This document shows, piece by piece, positions 36,738-41,362 of a stretch of 64,000 bases of DNA; within the stretch, counting starts at the first letter, position 1, and each line of letters opens with the position of its first letter. The stretch is taken from IMG/VR virus record IMGVR_UViG_3300009495_000012; one strand, written 5' to 3'. A model generated the notes under the pieces. That model did no database searches. It was not told where the DNA came from and worked only from the letters and a program-made list of their open reading frames with translations. The position numbers and the translations under genes were made by a program. This DNA is from a virus.

Positions 36738-37319
36738 ATGTCTAATATTTTTAATAGGTTAGAACGTAATGCATTCCGTGCGGGAATAACTCCCCGTACC
36801 AAAGAATCACGTGCGTGGTTTATGAAGAAGGCAATGAACATGCGTTCTATAAACCGTGAAGCATTAATGTAGGAAGAACCGATCAAGGCAAGATCTAAAC
36901 AGATCATTGGTGGCATGTATATGTTCACGTACGATCCGAAGCATAAAGATACATTGCCCTACTACGATGTCTTTCCTCTTGTTGTTGTTATCGGGCCCGC
37001 AAAGGGTGGGTTCCTTGGATTGAACCTACACTACTTACCACCTAAGTTACGTATGCAGTTCTTTGCAAACCTAATGGATATACAGGGTAGTAACATGGAC
37101 GATGATAGTAAGTTCAAACTGACATATAGGATGTTAAAGAAATCCTCAAGTTTGAGATACTTCAAACCATGTGTAAAGCATTATTTGAATTCTCAAGTTA
37201 CAAGCAAGTTTGCGGAAGTACCTGCACCAGAATGGGAGATTGCTATCTTCCTACCGACTGCACAGTTCCGTAAAGCAAATAGTTACAAAGTACATTACGA
37301 CAGTAGGCAGTTAATCTAA
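36738..37319 (+). CDS. gp2: DNA end protector protein gp2, interrupted by an in-frame TAG at 36870-36872
   Basis: MSNIFNRLERNAFRAGITPRTKESRAWF..ALM*EEPIKARSKQIIGGMYMFTYDPKHKDTLPYYDVFPLV..GLNLHYLP; one frame throughout, codon 45 is TAG. Confidence 0.85.
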
Positions 37320-38056
37320 TGAGTGCAGGATTCGGAGTAGAAGAGTTAAAAGCAACGATAAGCAGTTCTGGTGGCATGGCACAACCGCACCAGTTCATGG
37401 TACAGTTACCGCAATTGGCAAGTATCAATATAGACTCAAGAGATCTGTCTTTGCTCTGTAGTGCTACAGTATTGCCTGGCCGACAGATAACGTCAATTGA
37501 TCAAGCAATGGGAACGGTCAATCGTAAGATTGCTAATGGTTATGCTGTAACCGACATGTCATTAAGTTTCATGGTTATGAACGACCATAAGGTAAGACAA
37601 TACTTTGAAGCATGGCAATATGAAGCACATGATCAAGAAAGTAAGACTGTTGGGTATTATGACAACTATACTTACCCAGTACATATCAGTCATTTAGCAA
37701 GGGGAGCACGTCTTGCTATCGTTAAAAAACAATTAGGGTTCATGGACAAGGTACCAAGTTTCATTAGGAACAGGTTACCTTCGATTGGGCCATTCGACTT
37801 AGCACAAGGTGAAATTGACTTGGGTGCTTCGTTTAGTAAGAAGTCTACATATGTGTGTAGTCTCCTCGACTGCTATCCTACTACGTTGAGTGATCAACAG
37901 TTAGGTAATGCACAAGAGGGTATGATGGAACTCACAGTTCAACTATCATTCAGTGAATGGACATCCAAAAAGGGTGAACACACTGGTAAAGGTGAAAGTT
38001 TTGGACGTGGAGTTATTGCAGGTGGTTTATCAAAACTACTTGGAAAATTTGGTTAA
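37319..38056 (+). CDS. gp54: Tail tube initiator gp54 (gp19 family)
   Basis: GMAQPHQFMVQLP..LLCSATVLPGRQI..MSLSF..ND..VRQYFEAWQ..YYDNY..CYPTTL..TVQLSF. Confidence 0.75.
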   Translation: MSAGFGVEELKATISSSGGMAQPHQFMVQLPQLASINIDSRDLSLLCSATVLPGRQITSIDQAMGTVNRKIANGYAVTDMSLSFMVMNDHKVRQYFEAWQYEAHDQESKTVGYYDNYTYPVHISHLARGARLAIVKKQLGFMDKVPSFIRNRLPSIGPFDLAQGEIDLGASFSKKSTYVCSLLDCYPTTLSDQQLGNAQEGMMELTVQLSFSEWTSKKGEHTGKGESFGRGVIAGGLSKLLGKFG

Positions 38057-38086
38057 TTAATTATTTATATATTATAGGAGAATATA

Positions 38087-38800
38087 ATGGCATTACCTAA
38101 GTTTAACACGGCACCATTCTTTGATGAGAAGGTACCGTCAACTGGAAAACGGATTACATATCGTCCGTATCTTGTAAAAGAAGAAAAGATATTAATGATG
38201 GCATTTGAGTCACAAGATCAAAAGCAAGTTACACGAGCAATCGGTAACACTTTAAATTCTTGTATAAAAGATGACATCGATGTATTCAAGTTAACAACAT
38301 TTGATGTTGAGTACTTGTTTACAAAGATCCGTTCAAGGGCAGTAGGTGAAAGATCTTCTGTTATCATGAATTGTGTTGAATGTAAGACTGGCAACGAAGT
38401 TGATGTAATGATCGACCAGTTAACAGTTGAGGTTGACACAGATGAGAACGGATGTGAGAAGATTGAAGTAACAGATGAGATTACTGTCGAGATGGCATAT
38501 CCATCATTTGGTGATATACTTGATGTGGAAACAACAGGTGAAACGATTGAAGATGGTATCCATATGGTTGCATCATCAATTCAAGCAATCTTAACAGAAG
38601 AAGAAAGGTTTGATAAGAAAGATTTACAACCTGCTGAGATTATGGATTTCATCATGGAACTACCGACAGATAAGTTTAACTTACTGGGTAACTTCCTAAG
38701 ACGTATCCCTAAACTGGAAAAGGAAGTGGAGTTTGACTGCACTAAATGTGGTCACCACAATAACCCTACTCTTTCGGGAATGAAAGATTTTTTAGTGTAA
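38087..38800 (+). CDS. gp26: Baseplate hub assembly protein gp26-like
   Basis: MALPK..ITYRPYLVKEEKILMMA..LTTFDVEYLFTKIRSRAVGE; CxxC at both ends; ends GMKDFLV. Confidence 0.88.
   Translation: MALPKFNTAPFFDEKVPSTGKRITYRPYLVKEEKILMMAFESQDQKQVTRAIGNTLNSCIKDDIDVFKLTTFDVEYLFTKIRSRAVGERSSVIMNCVECKTGNEVDVMIDQLTVEVDTDENGCEKIEVTDEITVEMAYPSFGDILDVETTGETIEDGIHMVASSIQAILTEEERFDKKDLQPAEIMDFIMELPTDKFNLLGNFLRRIPKLEKEVEFDCTKCGHHNNPTLSGMKDFLV
38788..38794 (+). promoter_or_regulatory. Candidate -1 ribosomal frameshift slippery heptamer T TTT TTA
   Basis: X XXY YYZ pattern in the gp26 frame, two codons before its stop, inside the overlap with the gp51 frame. Confidence 0.6.
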
Positions 38801-38982
38801 ACCTTTCCCATGATAATTTGGTCAATCATTATAAGACCAATTTTTCGTTAATGCAACATCATAACTATAGTTTGAGTGATATAGAAATGATGATACCTTG
38901 GGAAAGGGAGATTTATGTTAGCATGTTAGTTGATTATGTAAAGGAAGAGAACGAACGACTAAAGAAAATAAACAATAGGTAA
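38791..38982 (+). CDS. gp51: gp51-like baseplate hub assembly segment, absent from the ORF track; probably a -1 frameshift extension of gp26
   Basis: FSVNLSHDNLVNHYKTNFSLMQHHNYSLSDIEMMIPWEREIYVSMLVDYVKEENERLKKINNR*; first ATG only at 38851. Confidence 0.8.
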   Translation, partial: FSVNLSHDNLVNHYKTNFSLMQHHNYSLSDIEMMIPWEREIYVSMLVDYVKEENERLKKINNR

Positions 38983-38986
38983 CACT

Positions 38987-41362
38987 ATGGCAGATGACAA
39001 TCAAAGACAGTATTTCGCAGAGGTAATCGAAAGGTTACGCCGTGAAGGTGATCTTGGCAGAAATGGTAAGAACTCCTTTAAGTCTGTGAAGGACACTCTC
39101 AAAGAAGAGTCCATGAATGCTCGTAGACAGAGTCAAATGGATACTAATATCGCAAGTAGTGAACGTAGAGAGTTAATCAATACGTTCAGTGGTATTGTTA
39201 AAAACGAAGATGGTGAGATTACTGTTACTGATTACTCTGGTCAACTAACTGTAATTATAGAAAAGATGGATGGTCTTATAACAGGAATCGAAGATTTCAG
39301 TAAGACTATTATACAAGAAAACGGAAACTTCCTAAACTCTGGTAAACTTGATGGTGCTGAAAACAAACGTGAAAGTAAAGCACAAGCAAAAAATCAATTA
39401 AAAGTACTTCAGCAAATACAGAAGAATACTGCCGCTGGTGGTAAAGGTGGACTTGGTGGTTCACTGAAAGGTCTTGGTGATATGGGTAAAGGTATTGGTG
39501 CAGGTGCTAAAGACATACTTGAAGGTGTTGGTACTGGCATTGGTGCTGTCTTTATGGGTATGGGTAAAGGTATTCTGTTAGCGAGTGCGGGTATTGCCGC
39601 CATAGCACTTTCTGTTGTTGCTGTCATGAGATCATTCGATGAGATGGCAGAAGGTCTCCAGAAACTAAATGAACTTGAGTTAGATCCAGAGGTCTTTAAC
39701 TCTATAGGTAATGCAATTGGATCCTTGGTAAAAGAACTTGGTATGGGTAATGCCATTGGTTTGAAAATACTATCGGGGGTTGCATTTGATGATCTTGGAG
39801 CAGGACTCGAAAAACTAAACAACCTAAAGTTTAATCCAGAAGGTATTGAAAACCTTGGATTGACTCTTAGTGCACTCGGTGATAATACTGGTATCTTTGA
39901 CTCTAAAGGTATTCAGATGCTTGGTGATGTTGACTTCGATGCGATTGCAGATGGAATAACAAGATTAAATGGCATGGCATCTTCTGTATCACCAGAAGAG
40001 TTTGGTTTAATCGGTGAAGCAATCAATAACTTACTGTCTCCATTATCAGCAGGTGATATTGGTGAAGCACAAGTTCTTAGCATGGTGGCAGATAAGGTAA
40101 CACCAGAGTTTGCTGAATCTATTCGTCTACTCGGACAACTTGGAACAGATGAGAAGTTCGAAGATGAGATGTCATCACTTGGTAAAGGTCTTAACAATCT
40201 AATCTCACCATTCGGACTATTAGACACAGATAACATGTTAGTTATCAATTCTTTGGCAAAGGGGTTACCAACTCTTGCACAAGGTGTATCTGGATTTACT
40301 GGATTTGATGCAGAAGTATTTAAGAAAAATGCAACTATTGTTGGTGAAGGTCTACAAGGATTATTAGACGGTACGGATGACCTGTTCGGTGCAGGTGGTC
40401 TACAAATGATTGACGATAACATCCGTCCACTGGCAACTGCTGTATCTGCATTCACAGGTTTAGTTGATGATACTACCGCAGAATCATTTAGAAAGTCATC
40501 TAAAATAGTCGGTGATGGTTTACAGGATCTACTCGATGGCACAGACGATCTATTCGGTGCTGTTGGTTTACAAGCAATTGACGATAACATTCTACCACTT
40601 GCAGAAGGTGTTAAGAAGTTTACTGATATCGTTACTGACCCTATGGCAGAATCATTTAGAAAATCATCTAAGATATTAGGTCAAGGATTCCAAGATCTAC
40701 TCGATGGTACAGATGACTTATTTGGTGCTACTGGATTACAGGCAATTGATGACAATCTAATGCCATTTGCCGATGGTGTATCTGCAATCAATACAGCAGG
40801 TGCAAATTTAGATCTTGCAAACTTTACTCAGATAGGGTTAGCAATTGATGAAGTAAACAAACTATCAGATGCATTGAAAGAAGTAGATTTCTCTCCTATG
40901 GAAGAGGTTGAGTTGCCTGTACGAAAACTACACGCATTCGCATCTGATCTACAAACTCTTATGAAAGGTATTGCGTTTGGTGGAGAGCATGACTTCGAGG
41001 GACTTGGAATGATGGGGTTCAATGATGACTTGGACTTTGGTGAAGGATTCCTTAAAGCAGATCTTCAAGTAGACAATGTATTGAGTAAAGTACAAAAGAT
41101 TCATGAAGCAATCAGTGCAGTACAAGGAATATCATCTGAGCAAGTAGAGAAACCTATTACACCTGCCAAACAACAACAGGGTGAGGAACTCGAAAAGACT
41201 AATAGAGAAGTAGCAGAGAACAAGTCAGAAGGTAGCAATGTCGTATCAACTGTTGCCGTTGGTGGATCCACCACAAACAACAACTCTCAGACAGTCGCAT
41301 TGACAAATAACAATCATGCAACCCAAGATGGCAACGATAGATCGTGGTCACTCTTTGGATAA
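38987..41362 (+). CDS. Tape-measure/baseplate hub gp29-like protein
   Basis: 791 aa, G/A/L-rich helical, central hydrophobic stretch, three 56-aa repeats; follows gp26/gp51. Confidence 0.55.
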   Translation: MADDNQRQYFAEVIERLRREGDLGRNGKNSFKSVKDTLKEESMNARRQSQMDTNIASSERRELINTFSGIVKNEDGEITVTDYSGQLTVIIEKMDGLITGIEDFSKTIIQENGNFLNSGKLDGAENKRESKAQAKNQLKVLQQIQKNTAAGGKGGLGGSLKGLGDMGKGIGAGAKDILEGVGTGIGAVFMGMGKGILLASAGIAAIALSVVAVMRSFDEMAEGLQKLNELELDPEVFNSIGNAIGSLVKELGMGNAIGLKILSGVAFDDLGAGLEKLNNLKFNPEGIENLGLTLSALGDNTGIFDSKGIQMLGDVDFDAIADGITRLNGMASSVSPEEFGLIGEAINNLLSPLSAGDIGEAQVLSMVADKVTPEFAESIRLLGQLGTDEKFEDEMSSLGKGLNNLISPFGLLDTDNMLVINSLAKGLPTLAQGVSGFTGFDAEVFKKNATIVGEGLQGLLDGTDDLFGAGGLQMIDDNIRPLATAVSAFTGLVDDTTAESFRKSSKIVGDGLQDLLDGTDDLFGAVGLQAIDDNILPLAEGVKKFTDIVTDPMAESFRKSSKILGQGFQDLLDGTDDLFGATGLQAIDDNLMPFADGVSAINTAGANLDLANFTQIGLAIDEVNKLSDALKEVDFSPMEEVELPVRKLHAFASDLQTLMKGIAFGGEHDFEGLGMMGFNDDLDFGEGFLKADLQVDNVLSKVQKIHEAISAVQGISSEQVEKPITPAKQQQGEELEKTNREVAENKSEGSNVVSTVAVGGSTTNNNSQTVALTNNNHATQDGNDRSWSLFG

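Follow-up and report, generated by a model that had tools for sequence, protein, structure and literature searches.

The locus considered here raises the question of whether a T4-like phage obtains two tail assembly chaperones from a single gene, i.e., whether translation of gene 26 is partly continued into gene 51 by a programmed -1 frameshift. The DNA belongs to the IMG/VR record IMGVR_UViG_3300009495_000012 of an uncultured marine T4-like phage, and the term window is used for the whole stretch that was analyzed (64 kb, 39% GC). In a review of the T4 tail, gp26 and gp51 are described as hub assembly chaperones, and both have classically been regarded as baseplate-hub assembly factors (PMC3004832). 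For the tail assembly chaperone genes, with gpG/gpGT of lambda as the example, a conserved -1 frameshift is credited to Xu, Hendrix and Duda (Mol Cell 2004, as cited in PMC12859696). According to the original prediction, gp26 and gp51 of the window form the equivalent of this G/GT pair.

Two later publications refer to Vladimirov, Gautam and Davidson (Virology 2022;566:9-15) for the identification of chaperone genes in T4-like phages (PMC10885494, PMC12846349). The PRFect paper cites this work for some T4-like phages which feature a short chaperone gene and a longer fusion gene and no frameshift (PMC10885494), and in the other one it is the source given for TAC-N genes of T4-like phages that contain poly-T slippery sequences (PMC12846349). 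Judged from these citing papers, the frameshift arrangement in T4-like phages was already described in 2022 and the novelty of the present case is low. The locus shares with the described TAC-N/TAC-NC pairs the protein family (PF12322 plus the C-terminal tail of gp51) as well as the 3'-terminal poly-T run of the short gene. Nothing essential differs from these pairs; the case at hand is an uncultured marine relative with the heptamer variant T TTT TTA. Since the idea is in the literature, the window adds a well-documented example and not a discovery.

Organization of the locus

The features of the region are the following, with positions referring to the window:

37319..38056, plus strand: tail-tube-family gene (gp54/gp48-like tube initiator) directly 5' of the chaperone gene; assigned by phrog_45 and synteny
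38076..38080, plus strand: Shine-Dalgarno sequence AGGAG of gene 26; anti-SD duplex of -7.3 kcal/mol, the strongest among the tested starts of the region
38087..38800, plus strand: gene 26, putative short chaperone form (TAC-N) of 237 aa in frame 0; PF12322 and phrog_150
38761..38763, plus strand: last -1-frame stop (TAA) upstream of the site, setting the 5' limit for a shift; from the translation
38776..38779, plus strand: weak SD-like GGGA about 9 nt 5' of the heptamer, candidate dnaX-type stimulator; from anti-SD pairing
38788..38794, plus strand: slippery heptamer T TTT TTA (X XXY YYZ), candidate -1 shift site; canonical and in the correct register
38791..38982, plus strand: -1 extension including its stop, corresponding to the C-terminal module of gp51; from phrog_634, the T4 gp51 alignment and collinear one-ORF forms
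38798..38800, plus strand: frame-0 stop TAA, one codon past the heptamer; from the sequence
38810..38840, plus strand: pairings proposed earlier as a pseudoknot; unsupported as a stimulator
38987..41362, plus strand: tape-measure-like gene of 791 aa in the gp29 position; from position, synteny, composition and a language-model look-alike

The reading frame at 38087-38800 is clearly placed in the T4 gene 26 family by its profile matches. Residues 15-236 of the product correspond to PF12322 (T4_baseplate; Pfam, E 6.2e-53), and among the PHROG profiles the protein matches phrog_150, "baseplate hub" (E 3e-52). By homology, the frame-0 product corresponds to T4 gp26. Its gene ends with GAT TTT TTA GTG TAA, and from 38764 on no stop interrupts the -1 frame until 38980-38982. 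Reading in this frame from the heptamer yields a peptide of 64 residues, FFSVNLSHDNLVNHYKTNFSLMQHH...IPWEREIY, and gp26 together with the extension gives a predicted long form of 298 aa (TAC-NC). The junction peptide of this long form would be DFFSVNLSHDNLVNHYK in the case of a P-site slip and DFLSVNLSHDNLVNHYK in the case of a tandem slip. The first possible starts of the -1 frame, TTG 38818 and ATG 38851, are both located 3' of the conserved residues LSHD. The end of gp26, the position of the heptamer, the open -1 frame from 38764 and the terminal IPWEREIY had all been read from the sequence in the original prediction, and they are reproduced here. Within the 64-kb window, no second copy of the gp26 domain or of the tail was found.

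Directly upstream, a match to phrog_45, "tail tube" (E 9.8e-32), was obtained for the product of the ORF at 37319-38056, and tail tube or tube initiator is also the annotation given to the syntenic genes of relatives. Further upstream on the same strand lie gp2 and a gp4-like head completion gene, and gp32 is encoded on the opposite strand after the 791-aa ORF. The gene of gp2, the DNA end protector, appears divided into two ORFs (36738-36872 and 36915-37319); for the latter, the match to phrog_429 does not begin before profile position 68. The 791-aa ORF occupies the slot in which relatives carry an annotated tape measure, and the language-model look-alike clusters of its product include PF25671, T4_Tape_measure (score 0.91). 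Searches in Pfam, PHROG and NCBIfam gave no match for this protein, and a BLASTP comparison with T4 gp29 was not significant. Besides, the protein features a near-duplicate segment of about 35 residues between residues ~452 and 542 (G-E/D-GLQ-x-LLDGTDDLFGA-x-GLQ-x-IDDNI-x-PLA) and, at residues ~184-215, a Gly/Ala-rich hydrophobic stretch that was seen in the alignment with T4 gp29. The gene order of tube-family gene, chaperone pair and tape-measure-position gene holds, with the last assignment being the weakest. Accordingly, the order claimed at the outset gained in its upstream part by the phrog_45 match of the tube-family gene, whereas the tape measure could be assigned only by position, composition and look-alike.

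Conservation of the slippery heptamer

A scan of IMG/VR provided 80 loci with gp26 relatives of 98-38% identity, 79 of which were analysable. Seven annotated phages of several families were added, i.e., the cyanophages S-WAM2 and S-RSM4, Vibrio phage K567, Sinorhizobium phage phiN3, Caulobacter phage Cr30, Pseudomonas phage pf16 and Rhizobium phage RL2RES, together with two further loci. The alignment of the junctions revealed a conserved slippery heptamer and the -1 relation throughout the relatives. In 86/86 related loci, which span 98% to about 25% protein identity, the T run keeps its register, the tail follows in the -1 relation and the -1 frame is open; the frame relation at the junction, whose possible variation among relatives had been raised alongside the original prediction, is thus constant. 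In all analysable loci, the T run comprises 6-8 T with a heptamer of the form T TTT TT(T/C/A/G), and an open -1 ORF of 58-69 codons is present. Of 57 junctions, 25 have the frame-0 stop directly behind the heptamer, 31 have one codon in between and a single one has two.

The 56 distinct junctions, corresponding to about 31 clusters with less than 75% identity at the nucleotide level, feature T at heptamer positions 1-6 without exception (56/56, zero entropy), with position 7 being variable (T 30, C 18, A 7, G 1). Two of the invariant positions, 1 and 4, are wobble sites of frame 0, i.e., synonymous sites, with nearby wobble sites reaching 1.3-2.0 bits. In the remainder of these genes, TTT accounts for 62% of the Phe codons, and 66% of the codons for Asp, Asn and Ser (AGY) end with T. 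The neutral probability that both synonymous T are kept is 7e-13, a rough and approximate value for which the ~31 clusters were taken as independent. A run of six T is not rare as such, as 29 runs of at least six T occur in the 64-kb window. Moreover, the dipeptide FF is conserved and also present in T4 gp26, which accounts for a part of the T-run conservation. The heptamer is conserved far beyond chance.

The same data bear on the trivial explanation that the frame change is a sequencing or assembly indel in the homopolymer, or marks a decaying gene, with the true gene being one in-frame ORF. Homopolymers are error-prone, and the relative P0050, found on a long-read contig polished with pilon, is apparently in-frame at the junction but otherwise broken. 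Its gene is split elsewhere, the apparent fusion probably reflects an indel error, and P0050 was left out; for P0153, another apparent in-frame fusion, there is no contig on record. Against an indel stands that the frame relation is identical in 86 independent loci and recurs in finished phage genomes, which come from many laboratories and platforms. Furthermore, seven near-identical relatives (81-98% identity) all contain exactly T6, which is therefore not a sequencing error. This explanation is effectively refuted by the comparative data, and the probability left to it is negligible.

Transcriptional slippage, by which RNA polymerase would add one U on the T run, deserves more weight. A fraction of the mRNAs would then carry both parts in one frame, and the same long protein would result. 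The homopolymer of 6-8 T in all relatives is in line with such a process, as are the T7-T8 runs in 30/56 junctions and the fact that a downstream stimulatory structure is not conserved. Efficient slippage by bacterial RNA polymerases, however, needs roughly nine T, and the window as well as ~45% of the junctions feature only six. The pattern of six invariant positions and a free seventh in a fixed register corresponds, in addition, to X XXY YYZ. Because of the short run of six T and this pattern of conservation, transcriptional slippage is rated lower than a ribosomal slip and is considered unlikely.

Selection on the tail from the probable slip site onward

Upstream of the site, the entropy at the three codon positions of frame 0 is 1.36/1.06/1.68. 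In frame -1, values of 0.65/0.50/1.29 were obtained at +15..+62, i.e., 5' of the first conserved ATG, and 0.79/0.63/1.37 farther downstream. The codon periodicity follows frame 0 up to the heptamer and frame -1 after it. The motif LSHDxLVNHYKTNF is conserved upstream of any usable start, including the first conserved ATG (+60/+63). Selection at the protein level acts on the -1 peptide from the slip site on, 5' of any start codon. Family-like residues 5' of the first ATG had already been noticed in the window, and the frame -1 entropy at +15..+62 bears out this observation. In ~15 related loci, a -1-frame stop abuts the heptamer, so that a change of frame is possible there only on the T run.

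These results have to be weighed against the assumption that no recoding occurs at all, that the tail of gp51 is made as a small protein of its own, initiated at TTG 38818 or ATG 38851, and that the T run merely encodes Phe-Phe. Such a reading matches the current annotation of cyanophages, e.g., g51 of S-RSM4 is a 44-aa ORF starting from the conserved ATG. An ATG at +60/+63 is found in 47/57 junctions, and in some distant lineages an ATG overlaps the stop of gene 26. The 16-20 codons 5' of the conserved ATG are, however, as protein-constrained as those 3' of it, and two loci contain no ATG, GTG or TTG until +102. The candidate internal starts of the window lack a Shine-Dalgarno sequence, with +0.6 and -1.5 kcal/mol vs. 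-7.3 kcal/mol for gene 26. A free-standing tail is likewise at odds with the invariance of the two synonymous T and with the one-ORF forms described below. An independent start of gp51 as the only source of the tail is thus very unlikely, and recoding at the T run is very probably the way in which the long form is made. Most of this probability falls to a slip of the ribosome.

Relationship to T4 gp26 and gp51

The 64-aa tail matches phrog_634, "baseplate hub assembly catalyst", i.e., gp51 (E 2.2e-26), and also the C-terminal tail of the phrog_150 profile. BLASTP aligns it with residues 200-244 of T4 gp51 at 33% identity (E 3e-6). Searches of NCBIfam and of a Pfam copy without PF28602 (Gp51_C) gave no family match for the tail. 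Residues 1-201 of T4 gp51 (249 aa) match PF12322 (E 4e-52), and T4 gp26 matches the same model. T4 gp51 consists of a gp26-type domain plus the same tail, and therefore the 298-aa product predicted here would be the counterpart of full-length T4 gp51. Genes 26 and 51 of T4 are two separate, divergently transcribed genes with no overlap to bridge, and T4 gp26 has lost the heptamer, its Phe-Phe being spelled TTC TTT.

A syntenic metagenomic lineage (L090-L093) likewise features separate T4_baseplate genes of 234 and 270 aa, with the tail in-frame in the 270-aa gene, P0076 (L090:3154-5324). P0076 maps on the window as two segments with the frame switch exactly at Phe-Phe. Together with the gp51 proteins of T4 and Aeromonas phage, it aligns with the predicted fusion without any gap across the junction, and all natural one-ORF forms carry the tail joined to a gp26-type domain. 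The short gene of L090 ends with GAT TTT TTC TGA, by which the heptamer T TTT TTC is still present. Between the two paralogues of L090, a 196-aa ORF with a weak homing-endonuclease match is located (phrog_314, E 0.0015). In a maximum-likelihood tree, the paralogues of the L090 lineage are sisters (99/96); they are nested among sequences of the frameshift type and separate from the T4/Aeromonas gp51 clade (100/99). Therefore, the two-gene state probably arose at least twice, a conclusion drawn from this tree that is provisional given its long branches.

In Vibrio phage K567 (L084:1500-1520), phiN3 (L085), Cr30 (L086) and RL2RES (L088), the heptamer is kept, and the gp26 stop shares bases with an ATG of the tail frame (TAATG/TGATG). 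This ATG serves in databases as the start of gene 51 of these four phages. A free tail of ~55 aa may be produced by translational coupling in these Vibrio, rhizobial and Caulobacter phages, alongside the frameshift.

Candidate stimulators of the shift

In dnaX of E. coli, a -1 frameshift takes place on A AAA AAG with an upstream Shine-Dalgarno sequence and a downstream hairpin. The locus resembles dnaX by its homopolymeric heptamer and by a purine-rich GG element, which is found ~9-10 nt 5' of the heptamer in most relatives. Across 54 junctions, the upstream pairing with the anti-SD sequence amounts to -6.17 kcal/mol, compared to -4.90 kcal/mol after synonymous resampling and -2.10 kcal/mol elsewhere in the gene. 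This excess (Wilcoxon 7e-6) was calculated from sequences that are not independent, and the value of the window itself is weak (-4.3 kcal/mol). Besides, the conserved residues (E/K/R)-G largely dictate the SD-like element.

The locus differs from dnaX downstream of the slip site, as neither the fold statistics nor RNAalifold indicated a conserved hairpin or a stem-loop 5-9 nt from the heptamer. The original prediction had suggested a weak pseudoknot formed by atgat/atcat (38810-14/38825-29) and ttggtc/gaccaa (38818-23/38835-40). Both pairings exist as described, but their role as a stimulator did not withstand the comparison. The fold of 38795-38875 is no better than that of shuffled sequences (z-score -0.41, single sequence), and RNAalifold returned 0 pairs for 24 diverse junctions. 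The proposed pairs hold in 76.9% of the cells vs. 71.6% after shuffling, with some wobble covariation at one pair. The pseudoknot was rejected as a stimulator, since both arms lie in conserved His-Asp/Asn-His codons and start 15 nt from the heptamer, too far for the ribosome entry channel. By analogy to known bacterial cases, the adjacent stop and the weak upstream SD-like element are plausible candidates for stimulating the shift, rather than a downstream structure. As no significant or conserved RNA structure was found downstream, the efficiency may be low.

Predicted fold of the probable chaperone domain

AlphaFold predicted gp26 of the window with a pLDDT of 90.0 and a pTM of 0.84, and P0076 with 95.9 and 0.90, respectively. 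An exhaustive VIA-align search of the gp26 model against 48,161 PDB chains placed 3fgx_B (Z 7.4), 2ob9_B (Z 7.2) and YqbN (3klu_A, Z 6.8), the XkdN-type prophage chaperone, at the top of the list, the next value being 4.8. The match to 2ob9_B, the HK97 tail assembly chaperone, comprises residues 1-90 of the model with 85 of 104 residues aligned at an rmsd of 4.2. The three top matches cover 85-87 residues of chains of ~100 residues, and the same trio heads the list for the 270-aa P0076 model. Foldseek gave no match in the PDB at E <= 0.001, and the chaperone fold was found only by the exhaustive search. The Z values of 6.8-7.4 are modest, lying below 8, a level at which a chance sharing of the arrangement is conceivable, and the match is therefore taken as supportive and not as conclusive. 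In the model, the N-terminal ~90 residues of gp26 thus appear to resemble the tail assembly chaperone fold.

The rest of the gp26 model is beta-rich and includes a motif of four cysteines (C96, C99, C218, C221). They are encoded as CxxC...CxxC at 38372-38383 and 38738-38749, with C96, C218 and C221 being invariant and C99 nearly invariant in the family. The four cysteines converge in the model, and the element weakly resembles zinc ribbons. A zinc-ribbon-like element is not known in lambda-type chaperones, and the T4-type protein differs from lambda G by its larger size, the added beta-rich part and this four-Cys motif. The tail is predicted to be helical (residues 207-269 of P0076).

The likeness to lambda G/GT is found at several levels, i.e., two overlapping ORFs flanked by the tube-family gene and by the gene in the putative tape-measure position, an X XXY YYZ heptamer shortly before the first ORF ends, a downstream -1 ORF without its own start, a long form which would include the whole short form, and an N-terminal part whose predicted fold appears similar to that of the HK97 chaperone. 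In profile searches, no similarity to lambda G or to the tail-assembly-chaperone families of Pfam and PHROG was found, and only T4_baseplate and "baseplate hub" were matched. The kinship with lambda G is hence functional and structural and not detectable by profiles.

Proposed mechanism

Taken from sequence comparison, it is likely that gene 26 yields two chaperone forms by a ribosomal -1 slip on the T run. Most ribosomes would translate frame 0 up to the stop at 38798-800 and release the 237-aa short form, i.e., TAC-N, the equivalent of T4 gp26. A minority would slip back by one base on U UUU UUA (38788-94) and continue in the -1 frame to 38980-82. The resulting long form of 298 aa would comprise the whole gp26 domain and a helical tail of ~60 residues, and would correspond to TAC-NC and T4 gp51. 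In analogy to lambda G/GT, the common N-terminal chaperone domain may hold the tape-measure protein encoded just downstream, and the tail may recruit tube or hub subunits. We infer the ribosomal nature of the slip, its efficiency, the stimulators and the binding partners. The idea of gp26/gp51 as the G/GT equivalent is supported by the conservation of the shift site, the selection on the tail, the homology to T4 gp51 and the chaperone-like fold.

With somewhat less than even confidence, a broader picture can be sketched, in which the frameshift site acts as an evolutionary toggle that was replaced by gene duplication more than once, some phages possibly produce a free tail, and the stop and the SD-like element serve as stimulators.

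Implications for annotation and tail assembly

In cyanophages, gene 51 is unannotated or present as a 44-aa ORF (e.g., KU686211.1 5690-5869; NC_013085.1 g51). Likewise, metagenomic calls of gene 51 range from 44 to ~100 aa with arbitrary starts, which amounts to a systematic annotation gap. The predicted long form is missing from most public records of cyanophages, pelagiphages and metagenomes, in which gene 51 is either absent from the annotation or entered as an ORF of 44-80 aa with an arbitrary start, and a correct annotation would join gene 51 to gene 26 at the T run. Regarding the biology of these phages, the logic of a short and a long chaperone known from lambda would reach T4-type tails, and gp51, the "hub assembly catalyst" of T4, would represent the long chaperone form.
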